Source: Isurus oxyrinchus (taxonomy: Eukaryota). From it: a stretch of DNA of 64,000 nt. Made by a program: the position numbers and the translations under genes. Below the pieces are notes generated by a model. The model saw nothing but the letters and a program-made list of their open reading frames with translations, was not told where the DNA came from and did no database searches. Of this stretch, positions 1,151-58,061 are shown one piece after another; position 1 is the stretch's first letter, and each line of letters starts with the position of its first letter. The DNA is taken from positions 69,998,001 through 70,062,000 of the forward strand of contig JANJGN010000012.1 of the NCBI GenBank assembly GCA_026770705.1, written 5' to 3'.

Positions 1151-1231
1151 CTAGGATTTTCAAGGATATTACCAGAACTGAGATGTTAAACCTCTCAATA
1201 AAAATGAACAGGCTATGGCTCATTTCTCTAG

Positions 1232-1421: not shown

Positions 1422-1459
<38 letters not shown>

Positions 1460-2212: not shown

Positions 2213-2604
2213 CTAGCAAGGAAAAGACTAAAAGGTGACCTGATTGAGGTTTTTATGATTATGAAAGGGTTTGATGGGGTAATCATAGACAAAATATGTC
2301 CACTTGTGAGTGAGACCAGGACTCTAAGATAATCATTAGGAAATACAAGAGGGAATTCAGGAAGAACGTCTTTATCCAGAGAATGGTTTGAATGTAACAT
2401 TCACTACTACATGGAGTGGTTGAGGTACATTGATGCATTTAAAGGGAAGCTAAATAAACACATGAGGGAGAAAGGAATAGAAGGGAATGCCTTCATAGTT
2501 AGAGGAAGAAGGTTAGGAAGAAGCTTATGTAGATCATAGACACTGGCTTAGATCTCCTAGTCTGAATAGCCTGTTTCTGTTCTCTACATTGTATGTAATT
2601 ATCA

Positions 2605-2742
2605 CTGTGATTTTTATGGGACCTCACTGCTCTCCAATTAGTTTCTATGTTTGCTAAATTACTACATTGACTACACTTCAGGGGTTGTAAAGCATATTGT
2701 GATGTCCTGAGGCCGTGAAAAGTGTTACATCAATGCAATTTT
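2605..2742 (+). mobile_element. DeuSINE/SacSINE-like SINE 3' fragment
   Basis: Tail ttgtaaagcatattgtgatgtcctgaggccgtgaaaagtgttacatcaatgcaa resembles the AmnSINE1/SacSINE1-type tail seen repeatedly in the window. Confidence 0.65.
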
Positions 2743-3789
2743 TTTCTTTTTATCCAATTTAATTGTGTGAGAGCACAAGTCAGTCTTACGCTCCCTGTAC
2801 TACTGAGATGCACCTCATCACCGAGCTTGGGCTAATCTTTTCCAGTCTATTAGGTAATGAAAATACCTGGGGCAGCAAAAAAGGTTTTAATCTGAGGGGC
2901 AGTGAAAAGCAGCTAAGAAGCACTGGAAATGGAATGAGGTAGTAATATAAAATATACAGCTGAACTGCGGACCTCAACCCTTGTGCCTTGACTGACTTTA
3001 CTGGTGACCATGATAACCATATTTACCTGAATTCCTTCTGCAGTAGGGCCTCTAGTATAGCGGTTGAATGCAGAGAGACTTCAAACAGAATGTGTTCATT
3101 GCAATCCCATGGAATTACTCAGGGCCTTTTTTTTGCACTTTTAATCACCACGTGCAAATGTTGATCTCTGCTAAATGTCAAGCTGCAGTCATCAAGGATA
3201 AAAAAACTTAGTTAATTTGTAAGATGCCTTCTTGCCCAACATGTTTGGGGAGCGAAGACAGATTTGAGAAGTATTCGCACGGAGTACTGGGGCAAAAAAT
3301 AGATTCTGTCTAATGGATTTCTTCTTTGTAATGCTAAATGCTAACTTGTGGTGAAACCATGGCAACGCTGAGCTGTACTGTTGTGACACAAACCATGGGC
3401 GTAGCTAACAAGGAATTGGCAAGGCACCAGCTGACAAGATTATAACAGGAGATGATTGAAAATAAATGTTAAAAGGAGTGACTGCTTGCGTTAACTTTGT
3501 CCCCCACTGATCTCTTTAAATAACAAGCAAAGACATGGCTAATCCTCCCAAGCAAGGATTGAAGGAAAACACACACCAGAACCGCAGAAACCTGACAAGC
3601 AAGGCGATCCAAGTATGAAGATAACCAGGTCCTTTGTTAACCTGCTCAAGGAGTACAGGGCTGACTGGAATCTGGGCACCAATCCTCTGATTACAGCCAT
3701 CTTGGTGCCTTTTTCTTTAAGTTCTTTAGAACAAGAGAATCTGGAACCCACCGCGACAAAGAGTTGAAGGAAGGGGTATTTTGGCATTT

Positions 3790-4630
3790 GTGTGGCACAT
3801 GTCCATATGCAGCAAGACCTGGAAAATATTCAGGCTTGGGCTAATAAGTGGTAAGTAACATTTGCATCACACAAGTGCCAGGCAATGAAAATCTCCAACA
3901 AGAGAGAATCTAACCATCTCCCCTTGACATTCAATGGCATTAGCACTACTGAATCCCCCACTATCAACATCCTGGGGTCGTTGACTAGAAACTGAACTGG
4001 ACTAGCCGTATAAATATTGAGGCTGCAAGAGCAGGTCAGAGGCTGGGAATTCTGTGGGGAGTAACTCACCTCCTGACTCCCCAGAGCCTGTCCACCATCT
4101 ACAAGGCACAAGTCAAGAGTGTGATGGAATACTTTCCAATTACCTGGTTGAGTACAGCTCCCACAATGCTCAAGAAGTTTGGTACCATCCAGGATAAAGC
4201 AGCCGCTTGATTGGCACCACATCCACAAACACTCACTCCCTCCACCACTGATGCATAGTAGCAGCAGTGTGTGCCATCTACAAGATGCACTGCAGGAATT
4301 CACCAAGGCTGCTTAGACAGCACATTGCAAACCTGTGACTTCTACCATCTAGAAGGACAAGGGCAACAGGCACATGGAAACACCACCACCTGGAAGTTTC
4401 CCTCCAAGCCACACATCATCCTGACTTGGAAATATATCGCCGGTACTTCACTGTTGCTGGGTCAAAATCCTGGAACCCCCTCCGTAACAGCACTGTGGGT
4501 GTACCTACACCACATGGACTGCAGCGGTTCAGGAAGGCAGCTCACCACCACCTTCTCAAGGGCAACTAGGGATGCACAATAAATGCTGGCCCAGGCATCG
4601 ATGCCCACATCCCATGAATGAATAAAAAAA
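3790..4630 (+). mobile_element. LINE-A (CR1-group) 5'-truncated copy
   Basis: Matches other LINE-A copies. 3' end gggcaactagggatgcacaataaatgctggcc..cccacatcccatgaatgaataaaaaaa. Confidence 0.9.
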
Positions 4631-7045: not shown

Positions 7046-9256
7046 GCATTTAACTTCAAAAATTCTGAATCCAAATTGAGATCTCTGGTCCATGTGGCTC
7101 AGGAACAATCCTAGATTTGCCTTCATCTGGAAAGCTATCATGGAATTTTTGTCAGCAGGGACGATCTAGTGTATCTTTACTAATCCTATTATCTGCTCCA
7201 CCTAGTCACTGGGACTCAGGAGCCAGATTTGATGTGTAGCCTGCTCGTCATGAAACCAGTCGATTGAGTCATTATTTTCTTTGTTATTTCTGCACTTGAG
7301 GATCGGCTTTAGAAACATAATTCCCAAATATAAGCTCCGCCAAATTGATCAGTAATGCTGAAAACTGCCACACAATATTTTTCAATGAGTGATGGCACTC
7401 TTCCTTGATGAGCTGATCAAGCTCACAATGCAAGGTTCCTTCTCATCTGTAGAACAACTCTGGAGGAAGCTGATGGAAGCAGTTGGCATTGATTTACTCA
7501 AATGCAAATTAGAAATATTCTGTTCATAAAAATAACATTTTGGGATACAGTACCTGCTCAATTTGAGACATGACATGTAATGACTGTAATGTGTTTCAGA
7601 GGGACAAATGATGTTGGACCCCAAGCTATCCAATACAAACATTTTCCTCATCTCAAGTTGTAGGCTAATTGAAAGAGATCAATTGCTATAATGAGTCAAC
7701 AACTCCATTACCATTGTATCAGGTGAAACAGGATGGTAAAAGATTAGCAAGATGGAGCTTAGTCTTTTTCGTCAGCACTTCCGATGTTTTTCTTCAAACC
7801 CTTCACTGTTGGATGAAAATCCTGGAACACCCTTTCCAACAGTACTGTAGATGTGTCGACATTACATAGACAGCAGCTGATTAAGAAGGCAGCTCACCAC
7901 CAGCTTTAGGGATGGGCAATAAATACTGGCCTTGTCAGTGACGGCCACATCCCGAGAATGAATGAGAAAAAAGTTTCTTTGCTCCTTGTCTGGTATAATC
8001 CATTGCACCCAAGATGGTCTCTATAAATCCTACCATCTGTTGCCATTGTGACCTTGTGTAGTGGGGATGTTCCTGTTGCCAATGAACAAAGGCCTTAATG
8101 TCAGGAAATGCATCAGATGACACATCTATGTTATCACATCATCATTTGCACACATTCTCACAGTCCTAGCAGACAATCCAAGCAGTACACTGCTCAAGCA
8201 GATTTTCATGAAAATTAGGGTCAGAGGAAACCAGGGCACAGTAGGTACTGCCAGACAGCCATTGTTAATTGGAAATTGAGGTGCATAGGTTTTACCATTT
8301 CTCTAGGCTCTGTTGGTGGGCTCAATCCAGCACCAGGCCCCAGGAAAGAATCCTCTAAATTTTCTTTGTTGTGTGTGTTTATTTCAATGCATGGTTCCTT
8401 AAGATTCTTTTGTGTAAAAGGGGACAGCTTGTCAGCTTCCTGCAGGGTGTTACATTCTTCCTCTCGACATAAACATACCAATTGTACACAAGGATTGGTG
8501 AAACCATAACGTGTGTTCCTTATTTGAAGATATGACTATATGCAGATATGCAGGAGACTGTGAGGCACTTGTCTGACCTCATTCACTGCTGCTTTCAGAC
8601 TGACTGCAAGTCATGGAGTGAATACATCATATCTGGTTTAGGTGCTAATGATTTACGGTAGTTTAAGGTACACTCCCTTAAAGGCATATGCACATCATTT
8701 CATAACTTCTGTTATCTACACTATTGCTGATTGGCTGCTTGTCTGTGCAGATTAGACAGAACTTTGCCAATCTACACTGTGAATATCAGCAAGTTGTTTG
8801 CCCACAGGAAGATTTACGTACAGGAATCTACCTGCCAGCACCTGCCAACCAAACATGAGCAGGCACTGGCCAGGATTTTCTATCCCTTTTAGGAAAATTC
8901 CAACTAACAGATAGCTTCTGGCAACAGGAATTCTCAATGTTTCTTTGCTCAAGAAGTGGGATCACCAACAATGTACATTTATCAAACAGGAATTGACATT
9001 GAGATACATAAGGGGTTATGAGAACAAGTGACCTAAAGCTTGGTCAAAGATGGAGTTTCTCAGAAGCATCATAAATGCCAAGAGAGAGAGGTAGAGAAAT
9101 GGAGACGTGGAGAGGGAGAGATGGAGAGGCAAAGAGGCGGACATTGGAGAGGTGGAGAGTGGAGACATGAAAAGGTGGAGTGGTGGAGATATGAAAGGGT
9201 GGAGAGTAGAGAGGTGGAGAGGGAAAGTAGAGGAGAGGTAGAGAGGTAGTGAGGTA

Positions 9257-9476
9257 CTTTTTTTATTCAGTCATGGAATATGGGCATCGCAGGCTAGGCC
9301 AGCATTTATTGCCCACCCTTAATTCCCCTTGAGAAGGTGGTGGTGAGCTGTCTTCTGGAACCGCTGCAGTCCATGTGGTGTAGGTACACCCACAGTGCTG
9401 ATAGGGAGGGAGTTTCAGGATTTTGATCCAGCGACAGTGAAGGAACGGCAACTGTCACTGGGTCAAAATCCTGGAA
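9257..9476 (-). mobile_element. LINE-A 3' tail (~190 bp) ending in a fold-back
   Basis: Reverse complement of the LINE-A 3' end. Inverted arms 9413-9437 and 9452-9476. Confidence 0.85.
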
Positions 9477-9999
9477 AGGTCAAGAGGTGGAGAGGTAGAG
9501 AGGTGGAGAGGCAGGCAGGTAGAGAGATGGAGAGGTGGAGAAGGTAGAGAGATAGAGAGGTAGAAAGGTGGAGAGGTGGAGAGGCGGAGAGGTGGAGAGG
9601 TAGAGAGGTGGAGAGGTAGAGAGATATAGAAGTAGAGAGGTGGAGAGGTGGAGAGGTAGAGAAGAGGGTAGATGGAGAGGTGGAGAGGTGGAGAAGGGGA
9701 GATGTGGAGATGGGGAGATGTGGCGAGGTGGAGAGGTGGAGAAGTGAAGAGGTGGAGAGGTAGAGAGGAACAGAGATTGAGATATAGAGAGGTGGAGAGG
9801 TAGAGAAGTGGAGAGGTGAAAAGGTGGAGAGGTAGAGAGGTGGAAATGTAAAGAGGTGGACAGTGGAAAGGTGGTGAGGTGACAAGCTAGAGAGGTAAAG
9901 AGGTGGAGACGTGGAGAGTTGAAGAGGTAGAGCAGTAAAGATGTGAAGAGGTGGAGGTAAAGAGGTGGAGAGGTAAAGTAGTGGAGAGGTAGAGAGGTA

Positions 10000-10181
10000 C
10001 TTTTTTAATTCATTCATGGGATATTGCAGGTTAGGCCAGCAATTTCCCTTGAGAAGGTGATGGTTTTTTGAACTGCTGCAATCCATGTGGTATAGGAACA
10101 CCCACAGTGCTGTTAGGGAGGAAGTTTCCAGATTTTAAGCCAAAAAGGAACAGCGACTGACACTGGGTCAAAATCCTGGAA
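10000..10181 (-). mobile_element. Second, more decayed copy of the LINE-A tail plus fold-back unit
   Basis: Same junctions (gaggtac-tttttt ... ctgggtcaaaatcctggaa-aggt) as 9257-9476. Confidence 0.8.
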
Positions 10182-10611
10182 AGGTAGAGAGGTGGAGAGG
10201 TAGAGAGGTAGAGTGGTGGATAGGTGGATAGGTAGAGAGGCTGGGAGGTTCAGAGATGGAGAGCTTTAGGGAGGTGATTCCAGAGTATGGGGCCTCAGTT
10301 GACTAAAGATACATGTGCCCCTGGTGAAGCGAGGGAAGTTGGGGTTAAGCAAACAACTAGATGGAGGAAGATAGAGATTTGGGAGACTTGTTGGACTGGG
10401 GGAGATTACAGTGAATGGGAAGGATGACACCAGGAGATCCTTCAAAAAAACAAGGATGAGAATGTTAAACCTAGATTTTGGTGAAGTGGCTGCCAATGTA
10501 GGCCACTGAGCATGGGGTGAGTGTTCAGCTTCATCTACCATTGTGTCTTACTTCTGCTTCTTTAACTACCTCCTCAAAGACCAGACTTAAACCTGGCCCC
10601 TTACAGGCTGG

Positions 10612-15634: not shown

Positions 15635-15915
15635 TGATGATGTAACCCAGGGCTGGACTAATGATCCAGAGAATGTGAGTTCAGATCCCACTTTGAGAAT
15701 TTGAATCCAGTTTATAAAATGTGGAAATAAAAGTCTGGTATCAGTAAAAGTGACCATGAAGCTGTTGGATTGTCAGAAAATCCCAACTCTTAGTCCTTTA
15801 GGGAATGAAATTTTCTCTTCTTACCCAGTCTGGCCATGTCTCCAGTCTTCCACTAAGCGGCCTAGAAAACTGTCCAATTGTATCTAGGATTGAGCAATAT
15901 ATGGCAACCTTGCCT
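15635..15915 (+). mobile_element. tRNA-headed SINE sharing head/body with the LINE-A 5' region and tail with the LINE-A 3' end
   Basis: ctggactaatgatccagagaatgtgagttcagatcccac (B box), then gtcctttagggaatgaaa..cttacccagtctggcc, then taggattgagcaatatatggcaaccttgcc. Confidence 0.7.
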
Positions 15916-24650: not shown

Positions 24651-26559
24651 GTTTACTCACCACAACATCTACTCCCTGCCCAGAAAACAGCAGTTTCATG
24701 GAACCTGAGAATATGGGAGAGGCCATTCAGCCCATCATGCTTGTATTGGCTCTTTGAAAGAGCTTTTCAATTAGTCCCGCTCCCCCTCTCTTTCCTCATA
24801 ACCAGAAAAATCATTCCTTTTTAAATACATTCTGAGAGCTGACCATTGTTGACAGAGCAGAGGTGAAATGGGTCTTGGCTGATAACATATTGATAAAAAT
24901 TTGATGGGCCATTTTATACTCTGCCCAACTTTGATTTTGACTGAAGCCATTGGTATAATATTCCTTAACCTCTGGGTGCAAGCCTTCCATCCAACTTCAC
25001 TGTGCCCTCAGGTAATTGATACAGAGCCAATGTATGTCTACAAGAATGGTGTGAGCAGCAGCAGCCCACAGACCTGACAAACGTCTTCACCAAGTTTAGA
25101 TCACTCTCATGAGTGAAATGTGATGAGAAAAGACAACTTGCTCCCTCGTTGAAAAGTCATGGTGATTTTATGCACTCTGACACGTATTAAAAAGAGACTT
25201 TTACAGGAAAATCAGTGGGCAGAATGCTATATTTTTGGACACTGAGAGATTTTGGTAGCATTCTTTGAGAAAGGTTTGGGAGATATCACTGAGAATAAGA
25301 TGGTGACATTTGTCCCTTCTCCAGAGCCACACTAAGGATGGGCAATCAGAGAATCATAGAATTATTACCGCAATTTGGCCTATTGTGTCTCTGCTGGCTC
25401 TCTGCAAGAGCAATTGACCTAGTGCCATTCGCCAACCTTTTTCCAATAGCCCAGCAAATTTTTCCTTTTCTGATAAAAATCTAATTCCCATTTGAAAGCC
25501 ATGACTGAATCAGCTTCCAACACACTCTCAAGCAACGCATTCCAGATCCTAAACACTCGTTGCGTAAAAAAAGGTTTTCTTCATGTCACCATTGCTTTTT
25601 TAGCCAATTACTTTAAATCAGTGCCGTCTTGTTCTCAATCCTTCTACCAATGGGAACAATTTCTCCCTGTCTACCCTGTCCAGACCCCTCATGATTTTGA
25701 ATACCTCTGTTAAATCTCCTCTCTACCTTCTCTTCATCAAGGAAAACAGTCCCAACTTCTCCAATCCATCTTTGTATCTGGAGTATCTCACCCCAGAACC
25801 ATTCTCATTAATCTTTTCTGTACCCTCTCTACTGCCTTCACCTCCTTGCTAAAACGTGGTGCCCAGAACTAGAAACAATGCTCCATTTGAGGCGGAACCA
25901 GTAGCTTATAAAGGTTTATCATAACTTCCTTGCTTTTGTACTCTATGCCTCTATTTATAAAACACAGGTTCCTATATGCTTTATCAATGTCTCTCTCAAC
26001 CTATCCTACAACATTATGTACATATACCCCTAGGTCCCCTCTGCTCTTGCACCCCCTTTAGAATTATGCCCTTTATTTTACATTGTCTCTCCTCATTCTT
26101 CCAACCAAAATGAATCACTTCATCTTGTGCATTAAATTTTATCTGCCACTTATCCGCCCATTCCACCAACCTACCCATGCTCTTTTGAAGTTTAACACTC
26201 ACAGTTCACATTACTTCTCAGTTTTGTATCATCTGCAAATTTTGAAATTGTGCCTTGTACACTAAAATGTAGGTCATTAATATTTATCAGGAAGAGCAGG
26301 GGTCCTAACAAAGGGACCCCTGGAGAACTCCAGGAGAAACCTTTCTCCAGTCCGAAAAACATCTATTTGCTGTTCTCTAAGCCAGTTTCATATCAGTGTT
26401 GCTACTATCCCTTTTATTCCAAGGGCTCTAACTTTGCTCGCAAGTCCATTTTGTAACACTTTATCAAATTCCATGTGGAAGTCTATTTAAACCACATCAA
26501 TGGCATTACCCTTATCAACCCTGTCTGTTAGCTCATCAAAAATCTCAAAGTTTTCTCTT

Positions 26560-29500
26560 TCTTCACAGGATGTGGGCATCAGCGGGTAGGCCAGCATCTA
26601 TTGCCCTTTAGAAAGTGGTGGTGAGCTGTCTTCTTGAACCGCTGCCGACCATGTGGCGAGGTACACCCACAGTGCTGTTAGGGAGGGAGTTCCAGGATTT
26701 TGATGCAGTGACAGTGAAGGAGCGGTGATATATTTCCAAGTCAGGATGGTGTGTGGCTTGGAGGGCAACTTCCAGGTGTTGGTGTTCCCATCTATCTGCT
26801 GCTCTTGTCCTTCTAGATAGTAGCGGTTGTGGATTTGGAAGATGCTGTCAAAGGAGCCTTGGTGAGTTTCCTCAGTGCATCTTGTAGATAATACACACAG
26901 CTGCTACTGTGCAACAGTGGTGGAGAGAATGAGTGATTACGTTGATGGATGGGATGACAATCAAGTGGGCTGCTTTGCCCTGGATGGTGTCAAGCTTCTT
27001 GAGTGTTGTGGGAGCTGCACTGATCCAGGCAAGTGGGGAGCATTCCATCACACTCCTGAGTTGTGTCTTGTGGATAGTGGACAGGAGTTGGTGAGTCAGG
27101 AGGTGAGATATTCACCACAGGATTCCTAGCCTCTGATCTGCTCTTATAGCCACAGTATTTATATGAGTGGTCCAGTTCAGACTCTGTTCATTGGTAACCC
27201 CCAGGATATTGGATGCTTCAGCAAAGGTAATACCATTGAATGTTGAGGGGCAAAGGTTAGATTCTCTTTTGTTGTAGATGTTCTTTGTCAGGCACTTCTG
27301 TGGTGCAAATGTTACTTGCCACTTGTCAGCCCAAGCCTGGATATTGTCCAGGTCTTACTGCATTTGCACATGGACTGCTTTAGTATCTGAGGAGTTGCAA
27401 ATGGTGCTGAACATTGTGCAATCATCAGCAAACATCCCCACTTCTGACCTTATGATGGAAGGAAGGTCATTGATGAAGCAGCTGAAGATGGTTGGGCCTA
27501 GGACACTATCCTGAGGAACTCCCACAGTGACGTCCTGAAACTGAGATGACTGACCTCCAAAAACCACAACCATCTTCCTTTGTGCTAGATATGACTCCAA
27601 CCAGCAGAGAGTCTGCCCCTGATTCCCATGACTCTAGTTTTGCTAGGGCTCCTTGATGCCACACTCAGTCAAATGCTGCCTTGATGTCAAGGGCAGTAAC
27701 TCTTACTTCACCTTTTTTGTCCCTGTTTGGGTCAAGGCTGTAATGAAATCAGGAGCTGAGTAGCCCTGGCAGAACCCAAACTGAGCATCAGTGAACAGAT
27801 TATTGCTAAGTAAGTGCCGCTTGATAGCACCGTCGGCAACATCTCCCATCACTTTACTGATGATCGAGAGTAGGCTGATGGGACAGTAATTGGCCAGGAT
27901 GGATTTTTCCTTTTTGTGAACAAGACATACCTGGGCAATTATACACATTGTCAGGTGGATGCCAGTGTTGCGACTGTAACAGCTTGACTAGGGGCGTGGC
28001 AAGTTCTGGAGCACAAGTCTTCAGTACTATTGCCAGAATTTTGTCAGGGCCCATAGCCTTTGCAGTATCCAGTGCCTTCAGCCATTTCTTGACATCACGT
28101 GGAGTGATTGGCATCTGTGATGCTGGGGACCTCCGGAGGAGGCTGAGATGGATTATCCACCCAGGACTTCTGGCTGAAGATTGTAGCAAATGCTTCAGCC
28201 TTATCTTTTGCACTGATATACTGGTCTCCTCCATCATTGAGCCTGGAGGTATTTAAGGAACCTCCTCTTCCATGAATTGTTTAATTGTCCACCACCATTC
28301 ACAACTAGATGTGGCAGATCTTGGATCTGATCTGTTGGTTGTGGGATCACTTAGCTCTGTCTATCACATGCTGTTTCCGCTGTTTGACGCACAAGTAGTC
28401 CTGTGTTGTAACTGCACCAGATTTTCACCTCGTATTTAGATATGCCACTCCATTGAATCAGGGTTGATCCCCTGGCTTGTTGTTAACGGTAGAGTGGGAT
28501 GCCAGGCCATGAGGTTACAGATTGCGCTGATGGCCCACAGTATCTCATGGATACCCTGTTTTGAGTTGCTAGATCAGTTTGAAATCAATCCCATTTAGCA
28601 CGGTGATACACCACACGATAGAGGGCATCCTCAACATGAAGACGGGTCTTCATCTCTCCAATGACTTTGCAGTGGTCACTCCTATAGATACTGTCATGGA
28701 TGCATCTGTAACAGGTGGATTGGTGAGGTTGAGGTCAAGTATATTTTTCCCTGTTCTTGGATCCCTCACCACTTGCTGCATGCCCGCCTGGCAGATATGC
28801 CCTTCAGATCTTGGTCAGCTTGATCTGTGGTGGCACCAAGCTACCCTTGGTGATGGGCAATGAACTCCCCAAACCAGAGTAAATTCTGCACCATTTCCAC
28901 CCTCAGTGCTTCTTCCAACTGGTGTTCAACATGGAAAATTACTGATTAATCAGCTGACGGGGGGTGGAAGTGCGGGTTAGGTGGTAATCAGCAGGGGGTT
29001 TCCTTGCCCATGTTTGCCCTGATGCCATGAAACTTCATGGGGTCCGGAGTTAATATTGAGTACTCCGAGAGCAACTCCCTCCCAACTGTACAGCATTGTG
29101 CTGACACCTCCACTGAGTCTGCCCTGCATATTGGAAAGGACATACCCAAGGATGGTGATGGCGGTGTCTGGGACATTATCAGTATGATTGATACTGTCTC
29201 TGTCGGGCTGTTTCTTGACTAGTCTGTAAGACAGCTCTCCCAAAATGGCACAAGCCCCCAGATGTCAGTAAGAAGGTCTTTGCAGGGTTGACAGGGCTGG
29301 GTTTTCCATTTTTGTTTCTGATGCCTGGGTCGATGCTGTGTGATCTGTCCAATTACATTACTTTTTATCTTTTGTAGCAGTTTCATACAACTAAGTGGCT
29401 TGCTAGGCCATTTCAGAGTCAACCACATTGCTATGGATCTGGAGTCACCTGTCGGCCAGACCAAGCAAGGGCAGATTTCCTTCCCTAAAGGACATTAGTG

Positions 29501-29778
29501 AACCAACTGTGTTTATAGGATGATACAGAGGGCATGAATGAGGTACTAAATGAGTACTTTTCAGCTGTCTTTAGCAAGGAAGAAAATGTTGCTCAGTTCA
29601 CTTTTTATGAATGTCAGTTGACATTGGTCTTATGGTTTCACCATTACTAAGACTAACTTTTAATTGAATTAAAATTCCACCAGCTGCCATGATGGGATTT
29701 GAACCTATGTCCCCAAAACATTTGTCTGGGTCTCCAGATGACTCATCCAGTGACATTACCGTTATGCACCAACTCCCC
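26560..29778 (-). mobile_element. Apparently full-length LINE-A (~3.2 kb): tRNA-like head, short 5' region, decayed single EN-RT ORF, 3' tail
   Basis: RT GVPQDSVLGPTIFSCFINDL..MFADDCT (27355-27600). EN start LLTDIWGLVP..GELSYRLVKKQPD (~29275-29205). A box rc tggtgcataacggt 29758-29771; B box rc ggttcaaatccc 29694-29705. The whole block interrupts one CR1. Confidence 0.9.
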
Positions 29779-30568
29779 GCTAATCTGCCCCAAGTTAATA
29801 AACACAATTTTCCCTTAACAATTCCTTCCTGTCTTTCCTTAATTAATCCACATTTGCCCAAGTGACTATTAATTTTTTCTCAAATTATTGTCCCCAAAAG
29901 CTTTCACATCACCAGGGTTAAACTGACTGGCCTGTAGTTGCTGGGTTTAACTTTACACCATTTTTTGAACAAGGGTGTAACATTTACAATTCTCTCAGTC
30001 CACTGGCACCATGCCTGTATCCAAAGAGGTTTGGAAAATTATAGTCAGCGCCTCTGCTATTCTGACCTTCACTTTCCTCAGTATCCTTGGATCCATCTCA
30101 TCCTGTCCTGATGCCTTGTCAAACTAAAGCACGGACAGCCTATCCATTACCTCTTCCTTATCAAATTTAGATTAATCAAATGTCTGACCTACCTCCTTTT
30201 TAAAAAGTGAACTGGGCAGCATTTTCTTCCTTGGTAAAAACAGCTGAAAAGTACTCATTTAATCTCTCAGCCATGCCCCCTGCATCCACGCATAAATCCC
30301 CTTTATGATCCCTGATTGGCCCCACTGCTTCTTTCATCACTCTTTTACTATTTATTTGCTGACAGAAGACTTTTCAATTCCCTTTTATGTTAGCTGCTAG
30401 TCTCTTCTCATACTCTCTCTTTGCTTCTCTTATTTGCTTTTTCAATTCCCCTCTGAACCTTCTATATTGAACTTAATTTTCAATTGTATTATCTATCTGA
30501 TATCTGTCATACCCAGGGAGTTCTGAATTTGTTTTCCCTCCCTTTGTCCTCTGTGGGAACATACCTTG

Positions 30569-43825: not shown

Positions 43826-45588
43826 GTTTTTAAATTCATTTATGGGATATGGGCTTCACTGGTTAGGCCAGCATTTATTGCCCATCCCTAATTGCCCTTG
43901 AGAAGGTTGTGGTGAGCTGCCTTCTTGAACCGCTGCAGTGCATGTGGTGTAGGTACGCCCACGGGTAGGAGCTCCAGGATTTTGACCAAGTGGCAGTAAA
44001 GGAATAACAATGTATTTCCAAGTCAGGATGTTGAGTGCCTTGGAGGGGAACTTGCAGGTGGTGGTGTTCCCATATATCTGCTGCCCTTGTCCTTCTAGAT
44101 GGTAGTGGTTGTGGGTTTGGAAGGTGCTGTCTAAGAGCCTTGGTGAGTTTCTGCAGTGCTTTTTGTAGATGGTACACACTGCTGCCACTGTGCGTCAGTT
44201 CGGAGGGAATGAATGTTTGTGGATGGGGTGCCAATCAAGCGAGCTCCTTTGTCCTGGATGGTGTCAAGCTTCTTGAGTGTTGTGGGAGCTGCACTCACCC
44301 ATACAAGTGGGGAGTATTCCATCACACTCCCGGTTTGTGTCTTCTAGATGGTGGACAGGCTTTGGGGAGACAGGAGTTAAGTTACTTGCTGCAGAATTCA
44401 TATCCTCTGACCTGCTCTTGTAGCCACAGTATTTATATGGTTGGTCCAGTTCAGTTTCTGATCAATAACATCCAAGATGTGATAGAGGGGGATTCAGCAA
44501 TCGTACTGCCATTGAATATCAAGGGGGGATGGTTAGATTCTTCCTTGTTGGAGATGGTCATTGCCTGGCACTTGTGTGGCATGAATGTTACTTGCCAATT
44601 GCCAGCCCAAGTCTGGATATTGTCCATGCCTTGCTGCATTTAGACATGGACTGCTTCCCACTTCTGACCTTATGATGCAAGGAAGATCATTGATGAAGCA
44701 GCTGTAGATAGTTGATCCTAAGGCACTATCCTGAGGAACTCCTGCAGTGATGTCCTGGAACTGAGATGATTGACCTCCAACAACCACAACCATCTTCCTT
44801 TGAGCTAGGTAAGACTCCAACCAGTGGAGAGTTTTCCCCTAATTTCCTTTGACTCAGTTTTGCTAGGGCTCCTTGATGCCACACTTGATCAAATGCTGCC
44901 TTGATGTCAAGGGCAGTCACTCTAGCCTCACCTCTGGAGATCAGCTCTTCTGTCCATGTTTGAACCAAGGCTGTAATAAAGCTGAATGACCCTGGCTGAA
45001 CCCAAACTGAGCACCAGTGAGCAGGTTACTGCTAAGCAAGTGCTGCTTGATAGCACTGTTGATGATGCCTTCCATTACTTTACTGATGGTCAAGAGTAGA
45101 CTGATGGGGTGGTAATTGGCCAGGTTGGATTTGTCCTGCTTTTTGTGTGCAGGATATACCTGGGCAATTTTCCACTTTGCTGGGTAGATGCCAGTGTTGT
45201 AGCTGTACTGGAACAACTTGGCTAGGGGTGTGGCAAGTTCTGGAGCTCAAGTCTCCAATACTACCACTGGAATATTGTCAGGGCCCGTAGGCTTTGCAGA
45301 GTCTAGTGTCTTCAGCAGTTTCTTGATATCATGTGAAATGAATCGAATTGACTGAAGACTGGTATATGTGATGCTGGGAACCTCCAGAGGAGGCCAAGAT
45401 GATCAACTCGGCACTTCTGGCTGAAGATTGAGGAAAATGCTTCAGCCTTATCTTCTGCACTAGTGCGCCGGGCTCCCCCTTCATTGAGGATGGGGATATT
45501 TGTGGAGCCTCCTCCTCCAGTGAGTTGTTTAATTGCCCACCACCATTCACGACTGGATGTGGCAGGACTGCAGAGCTTAGATCTGATC

Positions 45589-46676
45589 ATCCTCCGCCAT
45601 TTCCGCCAACTCCAGCACGATGCCACTACCAAATACATCTTACCTTCACCCCCACTGTCGGCATTCTGTAGGGATCATTCCCTCCGGGACACCCTGGTCC
45701 ACTCCTCCATCACCCCCTACTCTCCAACCCCCACCTATGGCACCACCCCATGCCCACGCAAAAGATGCAACACCTGTCCCTTCACTTCCTCTCTCCTCAA
45801 CGTCCAAGGGCCCAAACACTCCTTTCAAGTGAAGAACATTTCACTTGCATTTCCCCCAACTTAGTCTACTGCATTCGTTGCTCCCAATGTGGTCTCCTCT
45901 ACATTGGAGAGACCAAGCATAAACTGGGCGACCGCTTTGCAGAACACCAGCGGTCTGTCCGCAAGAATGGCCCAAACCTCCCTGTCACTTGCCATTTCAA
46001 CACTCCACCCTGCTCTCTTGCCCTCATGTCTGTCCTTGGCTTGCTGCATTGTTCCAGTGAAGCCCAACGCAAACTGGAGGAACAACACCGCATCTTCCGA
46101 CTAGGCACTTTACACCCTTCCGGACTGAATATTGAATTCAACAACTTTAGGTTTTGACCTCCTTCCTCCATCCCCACCCCATTTCTGTTTCTTCCCCTTT
46201 CCTTTTGTTTTTTTTCCAATAAATTATATAGATTTTTCTTTTTCCCACCTTTTTCCATTATTTTGTAAATCTTTTATGCTCCCCCCACCCCCACTAGAGC
46301 TATACCTTGAGTGCCCTACCATCCATTCTTAATTAGCACATTCATTTAAATAATATCACCAACTTTGACACCTATGTGTTATTTTGTTCTGCTGTCTGTG
46401 ACATCTTTTGATGATCTGCTTCTATTACTGCTTTTGCCTACAACTACACCACCCCCCTCCACTTCTCTCCCCCCACCCAACCCAACCCCCACCCCCCACC
46501 TTAAACCAGCTTATATTTCACCCCTTCCTGGGATTCACCTGGTTCTGTCGAAGGGTCATGAGGACTCGAAACGTCAACTCTTTTCTTCTCCGCCGATGCT
46601 GCCAGATCTGCTGAGTTTTTCCAGGTAATTCTGTTTTTGTTTTGGATTTCCAGCATCGGCAGTTTTTTGTTTTTAT
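45589..46676 (+). mobile_element. Penelope-like element 3' fragment with GIY-YIG endonuclease and hammerhead-type terminal repeat
   Basis: LVYCIRCSQCGLLYIGETKHKLGDRFAEH..RLGTLHPSGLN (ORF 45750-46157). 12-bp TSD ttagatctgatc at 45577-45588 and 46677-46688. Confidence 0.93.
46541..46580 (+). ncRNA. Minimal type I hammerhead ribozyme-like motif (core variant)
   Basis: gtt-CTGTCGA-a-gggtc(atgag)gactc-GAAAC-GTC-aac: stem II pairs, palindromic ACGT stem III, core differs from CUGANGA at one base. Confidence 0.55.
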
Positions 46677-47690
46677 TTAGATCTGATCCGTTGGTTGTGG
46701 AATCATCAGTTGCTGCTTATGCTGTTTCGCACTTAAGTTGTCCTGTTTTATAGCTTCACCAGGCTGACACCTCATTTTTGGGTATGCCTGATGCTGCTCC
46801 TGGCATACCCTCCTGCACTCTTCATTAAACCAGGGTTGATCCCCTAGCTTGCTGGTAATGATAGGCTGCTGGAGTCAATGTTGAGGCCTCGCAGGGCACT
46901 CCCTCCCCTCTGTATACCACAGTGCCGCCATCTCTGCCGAGCCATGAGGCTACAGATAGTGTTCAAGGACAATTCTGCTGCTGCTGATGGCCCACAGCAC
47001 CTCATGGATCCCCAGTCTTGAGTTGCTAGATCTGTCCAAAATCTATCCCATTTAACATGGTGGTACTGTCACACAACATGATGGAGAGTATCCTCAATGT
47101 GAAGCTGGGACTTCGTCCCCACAAGGACTGTGAGGTGGTCACTCCTACCAATAGTGTCATGGACAGATACATTTGTGGCAAGCAGGTTGGTGAGGATGAG
47201 GTCAAGTATTTTTTTCATTCTTGTTGGTTCCCTCATCACTTGCCCACAGACCTAGTCTAGCTGTTATGTCCTATAGGACTTGGCCAGCTCGGTCAGTAGT
47301 GGTGCTACTGAGCCAATCTAGCTGATGGACATTGAAGTCCCCCACCCAGAGTACATTCTGCACCCTTGCAACCCTCAATGCTTCCTGCAATTGGTATTCA
47401 ACATGGAGGAGTACTGATTCATCAGCTGAGGGGGAGGGGGGGAGGTGCGGGGTGGTGGTATGTGGTAATCAGCAGGATGTTTCCATGCCCATGTTTGACC
47501 TGATGCAATGAAGCTTCATGGGGACCGAAGTTGACATTGAGGGCTTCCAGGGCAAATCCCTGCCATTTGTATATCACTTTGCCGCCATGTCTGCTGGGTC
47601 TGTCCTGCCTGTGGGACAGGACATAGCCAGGGATGATGATGGTAGCATTCGGGACATGACCTGTAGTGCATGATTCCATAAGTATGATCA

Positions 47691-50600
47691 TGTTAATGTA
47701 ATGACTTGGCGGAGTGGACAGGTTTAAACAAGAAACATATAAACTTTATTACGGTGAGCTTTTCAGGTGCTACAAGCTTGATCAGGACTCTCGTCTGAAA
47801 GCCCTACCCGCCCCAGTATTTCCTGCGCTCCCAGAGCCTCCCAGAACGTCACGCAACCCTGATAAACAGTCGAAGAGGCTTTACCTTCAGTTACTACATT
47901 TCCTCGCCTTTAGTTTTTTTACAATTTCTATTTACAGGGAAATATTTGAATATCCAACAACACATACATATATACAACTTCAGGTGATTAAAGATCAAGT
48001 CTCTGAGGTTCTCTCCTTATACAGCTAGACTGGTGTAGTTCTGCCACTTGAAGTTTCTCAACAGGATCGACAGGATCTGGAACTGTAATATGAGACACAT
48101 CATTAGAAAGTGACAGTTCTGGGTTTGGCAACTCCACAGAGACATTGAGCATGCCTATTCTAGGTTGATCTGTCACCTCAGGAATTGACTGTTCAATATT
48201 AATCACAAGTGGAATATTTGGTTGTTGGACTGTCTCTCTAGCATGAATATGATCTATGTGCTTACGAATGATTCTATCTTCCACTGGTAAGACAATGGAT
48301 TAGTCTCTGAGACAATGGTTCCAGCAACCCAACAAGGGTCACTTCTGAAATTTTGCAGGAATACAATGTCACCTACACTGAATGTGTGAGCTTTGCTGTG
48401 TATGTCATGGTTCACTTTTTGATTACTCTGATTCTGTTCTACCTTCCCCTCTAAATCACCAGGCTGAACCGTGTATGTAGGCAGCATTTCATCAATAATT
48501 CAGACACTGTTGAACACATAGTCGAATGTGACGTTGTATGGTAACTGACAAGAAAGCGGGAAAGTTGAGATTCTAGGGTATCCTCTGATAACCTTTACAT
48601 ATCAGATTGAAAGTTTGTACAACTCTCTTGACTAAACCATTTGATGAGGGATGGTAAGGGGGGGTGCTGCTTAATATAGATTCATGAATTTCTCAAACTC
48701 TATGCTGGTACCATTATCAAAAATGATGATTTCAGGTAGGCCACGTACGTTAAAACAGTGACGCAGCTTCTCAATAGTTGCGCTCGACGTTAGTGACCTG
48801 ACTTCATATACATCAATCCATTTAGAATGCGCATCTATGATCAATAAAAACATGGTAGCTAAAAATGGTCCTACATAATCAATATGTAGCCTAACCCAGG
48901 GTTGACCAGGTCACTCCTACAGATGAAGTGGAGTTGAAACAGGCAACCTCTGTTGCTGACAATGGTGACAGTGCTTGGCCATACTTTCACACTGTCAATG
49001 CCTGGCCACCAGATATAGCGCGCATCCAAGCATACCGAAGATGAAAATGTGTGCATGAAGCTGTGAAGCTCAGTCAAGAGTGGTTTGATGGGACAACAAC
49101 TCTTGACCCCCACAACAAAATTCAATCTTGACGGTTTAACTCTGTTTCTGGCATGGAATGGTCTCAAATCTTTCTTTACAGGCAAATTTGACCACACTTA
49201 CAAAACAAAGCCTCTGACTTTCAACAATGTGGGATCTCTTTTCATCCAAGTTCTAATTTGTTTCACATACACAGGCAAAGAATCCAAGAAATTCAGTAAT
49301 AGCTCAACTTCTGTGGAACAGGAGAATGTATAATTCTATCTGTTCACGGCAGACGACTGAATGCGTCTGCATGCGCAATATGTAAGCCAGGACAGTGCAT
49401 AAAGGTATACTCATACGCAAATATATCAAAGCCCAACATTGTATTCTTGCTGATGCTATTGGTGGAACGGCCTTATCCTCACTGAATAAACCCATTAATG
49501 ACACAATGGTGAAATATCATCCATGTAGGTACTGGTGGAATTTCTTCACTCTGAATATCACCGATAAAATTTCCTTTTCTAGCTGGGAATAACCCTTCTT
49601 GGCTGTGGAGAGGGTTTTTGAGATATACCCAATGGGCCTTTCTGATCCATTTTCCATTCTATGTGATAACATGGCTCCTGCACCATAAGGTGAGGAATCA
49701 CATGTTAATACCAACTGTTTCGATGGGTCGTAGTGTACCAATAAACACGTTGAGTGCAATGTTCCTTTACTTTCATAAAGGCTTCTTCCTGTTGTGAATC
49801 CCAAAACCAATGGTGATTCTTTTTTAACAACCAGTATAATGGTGCCAACATGGTTGATAAGTTAGGCAAGAAGTGGCTATAGTAGTTGATACTACCCAGG
49901 AAGGATTTGAATTCAGTTACATTGGATGGTGAGGGTGCAACTTTTATTACCCGAACTTTTTCTACTACCAGATGCAAACCCATGGCGTCCACCCTGTGAC
50001 CCAGATAAGTAACTTCTGGCACTTGGAATGTACATCTCTCTTTTTTTAACAGTACACCAGCTTCCATGAACTTTCTTAGCACCTCCTTCAGGTTGGCCAA
50101 GTGTTTGGTCTCGGTTAACCCTGTGATCAGAATATCATCTAGGTATCTCACCACTCGGGGAAGTCCTTGCAAAAGACTCTCCATTGTTCATGGGAAATAC
50201 TGCATGCAGATGATACTCCAAAGAGTAGGTGAGTGCACTGATAAAGACCCCTGCATGTGTTAATAGTCACATGTTCTCTTGACGTGTTATCCAGTTCTAA
50301 TTGCTGGTAGACGTGGCTCATATCGAATTTTGTATAGGACTTACCTCCAGCCAGCTTTGCATATGAGTTGTCTATCTTTGGAATGGGGTGCTTGTCTAGT
50401 TTAGCTGCCTTATTTACTGTGTGGATGGTTTGGTCAGGCTTAACCACAAGAACTATGGCCGCTGCCCATTCTGAGAATTGGACAGGTTGGATGATGTGCA
50501 TCTTTTCTAACCAGCACAGTTCTATATCTACATTCTCCTTCAACTCATTAGGAATAGGTCTGCCCTTAAAGAAACATGGTGTCTGTCACCTGAGGATTCA

Positions 50601-53035: not shown

Positions 53036-54352
53036 TCTTTTCATCAAATAATGGGAAGCAGATCGTGCAGTAAACTTTGAGGCAAATTACAGAAAGATGC
53101 AAGAACTAGAGCAGTGATAATGGAGGACTTCAACTATCCTAATATTAACTGGGACAGTAATGGGGCAAGGTGGGAGGAAGCGAGAAGAGAAGAATTCCTG
53201 AAAAGTACTTTAGGGAAGGAAATCTGCCGTCCTTACCTTGTCTGGCCTACATGTGACTCCAGGTCCACAGCAATATGGTTGGCTCTTAATTGCCCTCTGA
53301 GATGGCCTAGCAAGCCTCTCAATTGTATCAAACTGCTACAAAGTCTAACAGGAATGAAACCACAGGGACTACCCGGCATTGAACCAGGCACGGAAATGAC
53401 AAGGCACAGTCTGCCCTGTCGACCCTGCAAATTCCTTTTTACTAACACCTGGAGGCTATTGCCAAAATTGGGAGAGTTGTTACATAGACTAGTCAAGCAA
53501 TAGCTTGGCATAGTCTTAGCCACCGAATCATACATTACAGACAATGTCACAGGCACCACTATCACCATCCCTGGGCATGTCCTGTGCCACCAGTAGGACA
53601 GACCGAGCAAAGGTGGTGACACAATGGTATACAATCAGGAGGGAGTTGTCCTGGAAATCCTCAACATTGACTCTAGACCCCATGAAGTCTCCAGGCATCA
53701 GGCCAAACATGGGCAAGGAAACCTCCTTCTGATTACCACGTATCATCCCCCCTCAGTTGCTCTTCTATGTTGAACACCACTTGGAGGAAGCATTGAGGGG
53801 AGCAAGGGAGCAGAATATACTCTGAGTAGGGGAGTTCAATGTCCATCACCAAAGGTGGCTTGGTAGCGCCACTACTCACTGAGCTGGCCAAGTCCTTAAG
53901 GAGATAACTGCTAGACTGGGTCTGCTGCAGGTGGTGAGGGAACCAAGAAGAGGGAAAAAAATACTTCGCCTTGGCCTTACCAATCTATCTGTTGTAGGTG
54001 TACTTGTCCATGACAGAATTGGCAGGAGTGACCACTGCACAGTCACTATGGAGATAAAATCCTGCCTTCACATTGAGCATAACCTCCTTTGTGCCACTGT
54101 GCTAAACAGGGTATATTTTGAACAGATCTAGCAGCTCAAAACTGGGCATCTATGAGGCGCTGTGGGCCATCAGCTGCTCAAAACTGGGCATCTAGGAGAC
54201 TCTGTGGGCCATCAGCAGCAGCAGAATTGTACTCAAACACAATCTGTAACCTCATGACCCGGCATATCCCTCACTCTACCATAACCACCAAACTAGGGGA
54301 TCAACCCTGGTTCAGTGAAGAATGCAGGAGGGCATGCCAGGAGCAGCACCAG

Positions 54353-55066
54353 TGTCATGAAGCTATTAATGTATATAATATTTTGGAAAATATTTTTCTT
54401 TTAAAATAGAGTTTTGGTCTGCAGGTTTGTCTTACTTGGGTTAAAGCCAGCTAGTCTGAGAGCTTTGATATGTACTGGTTTTGATATGTAAAGGAGATAG
54501 CATGCATTTGCATTTTTTGAATAGAGCATTCAAGAAGTGGGGTGAAAACTTGACACCTTTCTCACAGCTACCAAGCAATATGTTTATATTACTAATAAAA
54601 TTGGTACAATGAATGGGGTTTCATTGTTAAAAGGTAAAGTTCAAAGAGGCTGGTGATACAATGAGAATTTTAATCAGGTGTGCAGGCAGAGGAAATGTAA
54701 GATCAAAAGGCAGCTACAAACCTCCAACTGGCTCCACAGTGAAAGGAACTTCATTTTGAATTTGTAAGGGGGAAATGCTTTGCCTGGTGTCTGGTTAAGT
54801 CTATGGGTTGCTGTTGCCTTAATAGTTTGGGAATTTGTTAAAAGTTATGATAGTAGTGATTTGTAACCATGTGTATTATTTTAACCTGTGTAAATTAATA
54901 AAATGTTTCAATTAGTTAATGTAAAACCTCAAGAACTATTGGTCTGATTCCTGAGTTTAGAGTCGCATCTCAAACATAACACAAAATTATTGGTTATGAC
55001 AGTTGTTTAAAGTCTCCCTCTGAGATTTTTAAATAACTCCACTTTACCAGCTGCATCATCATAACA
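54353..55066 (+). mobile_element. Solo LTR (714 bp)
   Basis: TGTCATG...CATAACA termini. 5-bp TSD accag at 54348-54352 and 55067-55071. Internal AATAAA at ~54897. Confidence 0.9.
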
Positions 55067-55517
55067 ACCAGGCATACCTAAAAATAAGGTGTCAACCTGG
55101 TGAAGTGACAACACAGGACTACTTGTATGCCAAACAGCATAAGCGAGTGATAAACAGAACTAAGCAATTTCACAACCAATGGATCAGATCTAAACTCTGC
55201 GGTCCTGCCACATCCAGTCATGAATGGTGGTGGACAATTAAATAATTAACAGGAGGGGGACACTCCACAAATATTCCTATCCTCAATGATGGGGGAGTCC
55301 AGCATATCAATGCAAAAAACAAGACTGAAGCATTTGCAGCCATCTTCAGCAGAGCTGCTGGGTGGATGATCCATCTCAGTCTCCTACTGATGTCCCCAAC
55401 ATCACAGATGTCATTCTTCAGCCACTTCGATTCACTCCATGTGATGTCAAGAAGCGGTTGAAGGGATTGGATAGGCTATGTGTCCTGACAATGCTCTAAT
55501 AATGGTACTGAAGACTT

Positions 55518-56545
55518 ACATATGAACAAATGAACGTATGAACCAGGAGCTGGAGTAGGCCACTCAGCCCTTCAAGCCTGTTCCGCCACTCAATACGATC
55601 ATGGCTGAACTGATTCTAACCTCCCACCTACTCCTGATAACCTTTCACCCCCTTGTTAATCAGGAATCTATCTAGCTCAGCCTTAAAAATATTCAAAGAC
55701 CCTGCTTCCACTACCTTTTGTGGAAGAGAGTTCCAAAGAATCACAACCCTATGAGAGAAAAAAAATCTCTTTATATCTATCTTAAATGAGCAACCCCTAT
55801 GTTTTAAACCGTGACCCCTAGTTCTAGGTTCTCCCACAAGAGGAAACACCTTCTCTGCATCCACTCTGTCAAGACCCAGCAGGAGCTTAAAGGTTTTGAT
55901 CAAGTCACCGCTTACCCTTCTAAACTTCAGTGGATACAACTCTAACCTGTCCAGCCTTTCCTCGTAACACAACCCCCCCATTCCTGCTATTAGCTGAGGA
56001 AACCTTCTCTGAACTGCTTCTAATGCATTTACATCTTTCCTTAAATAAGGAGACTGTACACTGTACTCCAGTGCCCTGTACAACTGAAGCATTACCTCCC
56101 TACTCTTACATTCAATTCCCTTGACAATAAATGATAACATTCTATTTGCTTTCCTAATTACCTGCTGTACTTTCAGACTAGCCTTTTGTGATTCATGCAC
56201 TAGGACACCCAGATCCCTCTGAGTCTCAGAGCTCTGTAACTTTTTACCATTTAGATAATAAACTTTTTTTATTCTTTCTGCCAAAATGGATAATTTCACA
56301 TTTGTCCACATTATACTCCATTTGCCAGATTTTTGCCCACTCACTTAACTTACCTATGTCACCCTGTAGCCTCCTTATGTCCTCTTCATAACTTATTTGC
56401 CTACCTATATTTGTGTCATCAGCAAATTGAGCAACCATACTATCTGTCCAATAATTTAAGTCATTTATATAAATTGTAAATGTTGTGGCCCCAGCACTGA
56501 TCCCTGTGGCACATCACACGTCACATTCTGCCAACCAGAAAATTA
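55518..56545 (-). mobile_element. Relatively young CR1 3' fragment
   Basis: AQFADDTNIG..WAKIWQMEYNVDKC; 238-aa frame RDLGVLV..SGDLIKTFK..TRGHGLK..LWNSLP. Confidence 0.92.
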
Positions 56546-58061
56546 TTTGCTTTTTCTTTAAATTTGATACTATCTTTAACTTTTTTAGTTAACCACAGAT
56601 GGTGGGGCTTGTGCTCCAGAACTAGCCATGCCCCTAGCCAAGCTGTTCCAGTACAGCTACGACACTGACATCTACTTGGCAATGTAGAAAACTGTCCTGG
56701 TATGTCCTGTCCACAAAAAATGGTACAAACCCAATCCAGCCAATTACTGCCCTATGAGTCTACTCTCGATCATCAGCAAAGTCATGGAGGGTGTTGTTGA
56801 CAGTGCTATCAAGCAGCACTTAATCAGCAATAAACTGCTCACTGGCACTTACTTTGGGTTCCACCAGGGTCACTCAGTGCCTGACCTCATTACAGCCTTG
56901 GTTCAACCGTGGACAAAAGAACTGAACTCAAGGTGAGGTAGAAGTAACTACCCTTGGCATCAGCATTTGACTGAATTTGGCATCAGGAAGCCCGTGCAAA
57001 ACTGGAGTCAATGGGAATCAGAGTGGAATCTCTCCACTGGTTGGAGTCATGCCTAGCACAAAGGAAGATGGTTGTAGTTGTTGGAGGTCAGTCATCTTTG
57101 TCCCAGGACATCACAGCAGGAGCTCCTCAGGGTAGTGTCCTCGGCCCAACCATCTTCAGCTGCTTCATCAATGACTTTCCCACCATTATGAGGTCAGAAG
57201 TGGGGATGTTCACTGATGATTGCACAATTTAATCACCACTCCCTAAATACTGAAGTAGTCAGTGTCCATATGCAGCAAGACCTGGACAAGTGGCAAGTAA
57301 AATTCGCACTACACAAGTGCCAGGCAATGATTATCTCCAACAAGAGAGGATCTAAGCATAGCCCCTTAACATTCAATGGTATTACCATCACTGAATCCCC
57401 CACCATCAACATCCTGGGGGTTACCAATGACCAAAAACTGAACTGCACCAGCCACATAAATACAGTGGCTAACAAGAGCAGGTCAGAGGCTGGGAATTTG
57501 CACAGGGTAACTCACCTCCTGACTCCCCAAAGCCTGTCCACATCTTCAAGGCAGAGGTCAAGAGTGTGATAGGTTGCCCTCCACTTTGCCTGGATGAGTG
57601 CAGCTCCAACCACGCTCAAGAAGCCCAACACCATCCAGGATAAAGCAGCCCACTTGTTTCGCACCCTATCCACAAACATTGATTTCGTCCACCACCGACG
57701 CACAGTAGCAGCAGTGTGTACCATATGCACTGCAGGAACTCACCAAGCCTCCTTAGACAGCATCTTCCAAACCCATGACCCCTACCACCTAGAAGGACAA
57801 GGACAGCAGATACATGAGAACACCACCACCTGGAAGTTCCCCTCAAAGTCACTCACTATCCTGATTTGGAAATATATCACCGTTCCTTCACTGTCGCTGG
57901 GTCAAAATCCTGGAACTCACTCCCTAACAGCACTATTGGTGTACCTACACCACATGGACAGCAGCGGTTCAAGAAGGCAGCTCACCATCACCTTCTCAAG
58001 GGCAATTACGGATGGGCAATAAATGCTGGGCCAGCCAGAGATGCCCACATCCCGTAAATGA

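Follow-up and report, generated by a model that had tools for sequence, protein, structure and literature searches.

A tRNA-headed Zenon-1 retrotransposon of elasmobranchs as a candidate coding RNA polymerase III transcript with a predicted AUG-less start

Can a protein-coding retrotransposon use the promoter of a short interspersed element (SINE), and how would the uncapped product of RNA polymerase III (Pol III) then be translated? This question is raised by a locus in a 64,000-nt stretch of DNA from Isurus oxyrinchus (GCA_026770705.1, contig JANJGN010000012.1, positions 69,998,001 to 70,062,000 of the forward strand), hereafter called the window. In it, a long interspersed element (LINE) with a tRNA-like head and no first open reading frame (ORF1) lies inside an older CR1 element. 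We identify this block as a decayed copy of the elasmobranch Zenon-1 family, which has been published as an ORF1-less member of the CR1 group of LINEs. For the ancestors of this family, we rate the chances as even that Pol III transcription from the tRNA head was combined with an AUG-less start at a tRNA-mimicking hairpin.

The inserted element and its family

An earlier, sequence-only reading of the window had described one block that splits an older CR1, and this was borne out: on either side, the sequence aligns with adjoining stretches (3-483 and 487-1696) of a majority sequence derived from 24 genomic CR1 copies, a 3-nt gap separating the two. That reading had placed the start of the block correctly at 29778, but its end at 26560 has to be moved to about 26551. 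No target-site duplication (TSD) was found at the window insertion. The features of the locus are as follows.

26551..29778, minus strand: decayed full-length elasmobranch Zenon-1 LINE, 85% identical to the 19-copy family majority
29688..29778, minus strand: tRNA-derived head, from its boxes, relaxed fold, Rfam score, and common family 5' boundary
29771-29759, 29750-29734, and 29705-29695, minus strand: A-box-like, anticodon-arm, and B-box segments of the head
29417..29687, minus strand: leader in common with a 366-nt SINE, from the match of the SINE and LINE majorities over nt 1-292
29512..29601, plus strand: copy-specific insert, a CR1 fragment 87% like window positions 30201-30286 and not found in other copies
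29391..29416, minus strand: predicted hairpin with an anticodon-like 7-nt loop, CU-AGC-AA, from folds and a motif scan
29376..29378, minus strand: GCU triplet, complement of the loop AGC, in the frame of the endonuclease-reverse transcriptase in the family majority
26600..29378, minus strand: broken remnant of the APE endonuclease-reverse transcriptase ORF with an Arg/Lys-rich N-terminal extension
27432-27418, minus strand: FADD motif within the endonuclease-reverse transcriptase remnant of the window copy
26551..26600, minus strand: 3' tail with a terminal short A tract, common to the SINE
29779..29790, minus strand: 12 additional bases between the host CR1 and the head, of unexplained origin
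29791..30271, minus strand: host CR1, portion upstream of the Zenon insertion
25370..26546, minus strand: host CR1, portion downstream of the Zenon insertion

The minus strand of the window copy opens with GGGGAG at 29778 and carries the B box, GGTTCAAATCC, at 29705-29695; the A-box-like start and the B box, expected about 50 nt apart, were found at a distance of 53 nt. The copy is collinear with the family majority over nt 20-122 and 172-3277. The N-terminal motif of the APE endonuclease (EN) is reached about 510 nt into the window copy, leaving no room for an ORF1, as had been claimed, and at nt 440 of the family majority; the longer leader of the window copy is explained by the foreign insert of about 90 nt at 29601-29512. 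This CR1 fragment is inverted relative to the host CR1 and lies about 600 nt from the similar stretch at 30201-30286, and a local switch of template during integration is its possible origin. The window copy contains frameshifts, numerous stops, and six runs of at least four T, indicating that it is dead; the earlier label of an autonomous-type element had to be given up for this copy.

The family majority is 3,278 nt long and was built from 19 headed or near-headed copies. It holds an APE endonuclease and a reverse transcriptase (RT) in a single ORF with no ORF1, and most copies end in a short A tract after GAATGAAT, a poly(A)-type tail, both being traits of Zenon. In the parts of Stuart et al. 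2026 (PMC13343379) that were seen, Zenon is reported from elasmobranchs, where it invariably lacks ORF1 and has an A tail, and the elasmobranch Zenon-1 elements described there (CarCar, ScyCan, RhiTyp, SquAca, and HypSab) are like the present family in their length of about 3.3 kb, their lack of ORF1, and their A tail. Two probes matched the supplementary consensuses of that paper exactly, and the length was the same. The first 400 nt of the consensuses from white shark, catshark, whale shark, dogfish, and stingray (first 400 letters per entry, species read from the entry codes) closely matched the family majority by eye; in the excerpts of the hagfish and coelacanth Zenon entries the head is not shown. 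In a tree of 36 RT rows, which holds no named Zenon reference, the family grouped with elements of butterfly, beetle, and amphioxus and separately from shark CR1, at moderate support (91/87).

The family and its missing ORF1 are already known, the latter being a published property of all Zenon elements in the portions of the source consulted. The word "tRNA" does not occur in the text and supplement of PMC13343379 that were searched, and in these portions the head, the avoidance of T runs, the missing AUG, and the identity with a SINE are unremarked. The head seems unremarked also in the rest of the literature searched, outside of which lie Repbase and Dfam.

A tRNA-like head and a two-ended SINE

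The 5.0-Gb genome yielded 15,275 candidates at first look, of which 40 were scored. Besides the locus in the window, 29 loci were fetched; the set includes two near-duplicate pairs, and the query favoured copies reaching the 5' end. The start of the element fell within 5 nt of the same base in 15 of the 29 loci and within 30 nt in 22 of them; 5' truncation by more than 100 nt was seen in 5. A second set of loci had the same 5' boundary, column conservation falling to 0.32-0.45 upstream of it. When a 316-nt query covering head and leader was used, the last 25 nt or so of which are LINE-specific, 29 of 30 loci ran into the ORF and one was a SINE. Among the loci examined, no headed copy extended upstream into a shared ORF1. 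A one-off SINE-LINE chimera, or a family whose copies carry an upstream ORF1, is excluded because independent copies share the 5' boundary with unrelated flanks and the consensuses of five species agree.

No tRNA was found by ARAGORN in the window or by Rfam in the head of the window copy. Better copies scored 20.5-20.6 bits on the Rfam tRNA model, under its gathering cut-off of 29 bits, and relaxed ARAGORN folded the majority head into a cloverleaf that resembles tRNA-Thr(AGT) and has a long variable arm. The 5' end of the family thus combines a tRNA-like fold with A and B boxes, the arrangement of a type 2 Pol III promoter, and the published consensuses of the five species, as far as they were seen, open with the head and keep A/B-box-like motifs by eye. 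In 80 metagenome relatives, the heads returned by relaxed ARAGORN were scattered noise, and blastn matches to the leader were only chance ones of 14-22 nt. By eye, majority nt 92-98, at the end of the head, are complementary to nt 213-219 in the apical loop of a long leader hairpin, and a head-body pseudoknot is possible in the majority leader.

Insertions bounded by TSDs had been suggested as a test of the head. Of 20 LINE copies fetched, 16 passed end-finding (one without a 3' flank), and the longest shared flank word reached at least 8 nt in one of these 16, compared with 3.8% of mismatched pairs; in the SINE, the corresponding figures were one of 30 copies and 2.4%. TSDs were therefore not above chance in either element, making this test unusable.

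The same head is present on an abundant SINE. One short copy served as the query, and 30 of the best 40 matches listed were fetched. The 366-nt SINE majority falls into two parts, one corresponding to LINE majority nt 1-292 with 12 mismatches and the other to roughly its final 75 nt, and agreement with Zenon at the two ends is 92-96%. Its build fits that of SacSINE1, and its body is putatively of the "Deu" type. In the parts of PMC5499810 and PMC3747384 consulted, the DeuSINEs SacSINE1 and LmeSINE1 occur in sharks and skate and have a tRNA head, a conserved body, and a LINE-type tail; the 366-nt SINE is built alike. The LINE partner of DeuSINEs, however, has been published as L2-2_CM (78.6% tail similarity) or a CR1-4_DR-like element in the portions seen, whereas here it is Zenon, at both ends. 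Persaeus, a short internally deleted element (SIDE) of lepidopteran Zenon (PMC6740152), likewise arose by internal deletion of Zenon but, in what was seen of that paper, is without tRNA homology or a Pol III promoter, unlike the 366-nt SINE. Bipartite SINEs derived from RTE and Vingi (PMC5786205, seen in part) are likewise deletion products of an ORF1-less LINE; in those cases the tRNA head is found on the SINE only, whereas here it is found also on the coding LINE. Both directions, a LINE capturing the ends of a SINE and a SINE arising by deletion of a LINE, would be compatible with the sequences.

Transcription and the start of translation

Pol III stops at runs of four or more T (T≥4). In the 3,278 nt of the 19-copy majority there is no such run, compared with 15 runs of A, 11 of C, and 9 of G, and TTT was observed 4 times against 18.8 expected (no resample out of 3000 gave so low a count). 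The majority of shark CR1 contains 6 T≥4 runs in 543 codons and 31 TTT against 39 expected. All 74 metagenome LINE ORFs contained T≥4 runs, and the TTT ratio of the Zenon majority was the lowest of 76 ORFs tested; the metagenome set comprises those of the 80 loci with an ORF of at least 330 aa, most of them distant and T-richer. Decayed single copies had 0-6 T≥4 runs. The RNA evidence consisted of 24 runs listed, all of them Logan contigs and nearly all guessed to be RNA or unlabelled; four assembled-contig runs covered 30 of 30 bins and contained the SINE-type joint, but they give no start, strand, or level and were not used as support. Judged from the head, its boxes, and the shortage of T runs, the active ancestors were probably transcribed by Pol III from the internal A and B boxes.

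The ORF of the majority is one frame of 892 codons followed by 76 codons after a single stop, about 969 codons in all; Exo_endo_phos and RVT_1 were detected in sister copies. The first in-frame Met is residue 284, past the endonuclease motifs Asn (40), GDFN (172), and SDH (238). Among the variants at nt 329-432 present in at least 8 of 69 non-redundant copies, 4 of 6 were synonymous in the EN frame (P = 0.035) and the rest were Ser/Thr changes, while none of the 6 was synonymous in either other frame; common variants of the EN region, taken as a control, were synonymous in 9 of 15 cases (P = 0.02). This pattern weakly suggests that translation of a basic extension begins at nt 320-335, a stretch that holds no AUG.

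Majority nt 288-313 fold into a stem with the 7-nt loop CU-AGC-AA, and an in-frame GCU follows 21 nt after the loop. In the five species' consensuses, as far as seen, GCUA is invariant by eye while its neighbours vary, and GCU is in frame in four. A similar arrangement occurs in L136, a headless metagenome contig with 42% amino acid identity and 7 T≥4 runs, whose leader has a 12-bp stem, the loop CC-AGC-UA, and an in-frame GCU 23 nt downstream; the idea of the hairpin preceded its discovery there. A tuned motif scanner found the motif in none of 15 other LINE leaders. Shuffled leaders gave an in-frame AGC/GCU case in 0 and 1 of 3000 and any in-frame open case in 18 and 26. Back-translation, applied to proteins called from upstream starts, left room for a hairpin of at least 10 bp at the position aligned with the start in 4 of 7 more close relatives, which share ancestry, one of them needing Val and a GAC loop; of the others, two reached 7 and 5 pairs and one gave no fit, and inside ORFs the null rate per position was 0.1%. 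The hairpin could be fitted neither to P0112 nor to P0114; P0174 gave 7 bp and P0069, at the edge of its call, 5 bp. In 5 copies, one stem pair has changed from G-C to U-A. A candidate pseudoknot II (PKII) between a loop AGGG and nt 283-288 was dropped because its strand is removed by a 12-nt deletion between CTCT direct repeats (majority nt 274-285), which is found in more than half of the 69 copies (e.g., L002, L007, and the window copy).

The arrangement recalls pseudoknot I (PKI) of the intergenic region (IGR, type 6) internal ribosome entry sites (IRESs) of dicistroviruses. According to the parts of PMC4132737, PMC10275262, and PMC12221177 that were consulted, an ORF without AUG starts there at a hairpin with an Ala codon, and the loop can pair with a downstream in-frame triplet, as the predicted loop here could do. 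Unlike in the IGR IRES, there are only 3-4 pairs here, GCU is the paired triplet, and no PKII, pseudoknot III (PKIII), L1.1, SLIV, or SLV was identified. The predicted hairpin would work like PKI, if at all, and we do not class it as a type 6 IRES. We nevertheless lean towards a non-AUG start set by this hairpin as the predicted route of translation.

In the mechanism that we propose, Pol III would read through the 3.3 kb and end at the first genomic T run. The uncapped RNA would bind ribosomes via its leader, and the loop AGC would pair with GCU and fix the frame, as PKI does in dicistrovirus IGR IRESs. Decoding would begin at GCU or just after it, yielding the basic N-terminal extension, and the EN-RT protein would use target-primed reverse transcription on the 3' tail common to both elements, thereby also mobilising the SINE. 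As to the order of events, an ORF1-less Zenon already independent of cap and AUG would have gained a tRNA-type promoter, lost its T runs, and spread with the two-ended SINE riding along. A wider version has a self-mobilising coding Pol III transcript whose factor-less tRNA-mimic start is older than the head and common to a Zenon subclade reaching from invertebrates to sharks. The Deu-type SINEs of vertebrates would then be deletion products of such a LINE, and their conserved body, long without explanation, would therefore be a ribosome-binding LINE leader; we regard this version as doubtful.

A number of observations weigh against the proposed mechanism, those on the start of translation being the following. 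The loop and triplet form just 3-4 bp, compared with the at least 4 needed in Israeli acute paralysis virus (IAPV), and type 6 IRESs, in the parts of the sources seen, have GCU as the codon decoded first and not as the paired triplet. No PKII/PKIII ribosome-binding domain appeared in the folds or the helix list, no IRES or ribozyme match was returned by Rfam for the window copy or four better copies, and the folding energies of the shark and L136 leaders were no better than those of shuffles (z = -0.06 and -1.2). The covarying stem pair is broken in 7 copies, and in the dogfish consensus, as far as seen, GCU is off by one by eye. Versions 1 and 2 of the scanner missed the shark motif, and the final search window was set after both cases were known; 12 of 63 distant proteins reach at least 9 bp at some point within a stretch of 13 codons. 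An in-frame Met precedes the Asn by six codons in L136, and protein P0044 starts with M-ATKK. Finally, when variants in at least 5 copies were taken, the frame test was not significant, its EN positive control included.

On the side of transcription, the same weighing concerns the main rival, in which Pol II, by read-through or from a promoter in the leader, makes the coding RNA, the head is a passive captured SINE end, and T-poverty is no more than the usual strand bias of a LINE. LINEs are generally regarded as Pol II products (PMC5786205, in the part seen); AATAAA precedes the A tail, as in a Pol II element, and A tails are found on all Zenons in the published portions consulted. The Zenon majority is T-poor (20%), a milder TTT depletion occurs also in 3 of the 74 metagenome ORFs, and the absence of T≥4 runs has a chance of 0.013 under a base shuffle, 0.094 under a codon shuffle, and 0.18, 0.20, and 0.67 under other nulls. 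Taken on its own, this absence is weak, because the strict nulls (0.094-0.67) are compatible with chance. Relatives without a head and rich in T runs, such as L136, further imply that the clade needs no Pol III. A passive head does not, however, readily account for its retention with A and B boxes exactly at the 5' end of shark and ray elements (one ray; in the consensuses as far as seen), for TTT at about a fifth of expectation, the lowest ratio of all ORFs tested, or for the fact that the same head drives an abundant SINE. We consider Pol II transcription with a passive head possible, but would not expect it.

Rivals for the start of translation make use of an out-of-frame AUG at majority nt 348, which opens a 36-codon upstream ORF (uORF) overlapping the start of EN. 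The EN ORF would be reached from this AUG by a -1 frameshift or reinitiation, or else from a near-cognate codon by scanning, the hairpin being part of a SINE-type body. The AUG is intact in 59 of the 69 copies, which also counts against the hairpin, and it is visible in the main consensuses of the five species, so far as these were seen; reinitiation is known for LINE ORF2 (PMC3894237, seen in part). On the other hand, none of the common variants is synonymous in the uORF frame, whereas in the EN frame most of them are, also in the part that precedes the AUG. The uORF stop is intact in only 41 of the 69 copies and comes later than the conserved Asn codon, inspection by eye showed no canonical slippery heptamer, and the AUG could be a side effect of the Asn-Glu codons, which are conserved; a route through this AUG or by scanning is thus unlikely. 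It is more improbable still, with odds that we consider very low, that the headed family is a chimera, non-autonomous or semi-autonomous, which another LINE amplified in trans and whose ORF was untranslated. No intact ORF was found in the loci examined (longest matching open stretch, 409 aa), and a table in PMC13343379, a source seen in part, lists 0 of 2313 copies as intact for one species. The 19-copy majority nevertheless forms one open frame apart from its single stop, the common variants of the EN region are enriched for synonymous change, and no longer parent was seen.

Other Zenon sequences and meaning for the family

A second Zenon copy lies in the window.

53202..58061, plus strand: second Zenon copy, without a head, its 5' end cut off at majority nt 193, and interrupted by two later insertions

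The sequence-only reading had taken this copy, placed at 53207, to show the same short leader. It does support the lack of ORF1, but it has no head, as it starts at majority nt 193. A CR1-like RT fragment (minus strand, 55628-56542) sits inside it, and another insert is found at about 54353-55066. Short Zenon 3' ends at 9258-9449 and 10043-10142 border (TGGAGAGG)n arrays (9472-9998 and 10177-10263), each with a 26-nt inverted piece alongside. More fragments occur at 3798-4630, 7800-7970, 43826-47693, 61852-62497, and 15697-15835, and together with the two main copies the Zenon fragments occupy roughly a sixth of the window.

Beyond the window, L004, L006, L010, and L107 carry the same 1-nt deletion just before the Asn codon, which suggests that a frameshifted sub-lineage moved in trans or was duplicated. 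Predicted shark proteins P0016, P0018, P0028, and P0029 (anoctamin-7-like, storkhead-box 1-like, and others) contain Zenon pieces with 62-71% identity, which are probably annotation artefacts or exonisation. The leader of L138 (110-480), a 37%-identical relative with an in-frame Met, contains a motif of the GGATGAGACC..TCAACGGCCATCAT type, repeated twice, which may represent a ribozyme-like element. No relative was found in the viral contigs searched, and six GTDB loci are distant relatives (25-33%). The eukaryote-type LINE ORFs in six prokaryotic genome assemblies (L246-L251) are likely host contamination.

SINEs are described as not encoding protein (PMC5786205, in the part seen). Pol III is seen as a maker of non-coding RNA only, and a 3.3-kb coding retrotransposon on a SINE promoter would, if true, break that line. 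For the earlier question of how an uncapped Pol III RNA might be translated, there is now a concrete candidate, the anticodon-like hairpin with its in-frame GCU. An IGR-IRES-like start in elements without long terminal repeats (non-LTR elements) was speculated on in 2013 (PMC3894237, seen in part), and no report of such a start in a LINE was found in the literature searched. Should Pol III transcription fail, Zenon-1 and its SINE would still be an unreported LINE-SINE pair with both ends in common, and a candidate for a start without AUG would be left as well. According to the part of PMC4824008 consulted, what conserved SINE bodies do and where they come from is unknown, and the Zenon leader of about 350 nt offers a direct handle on this question.

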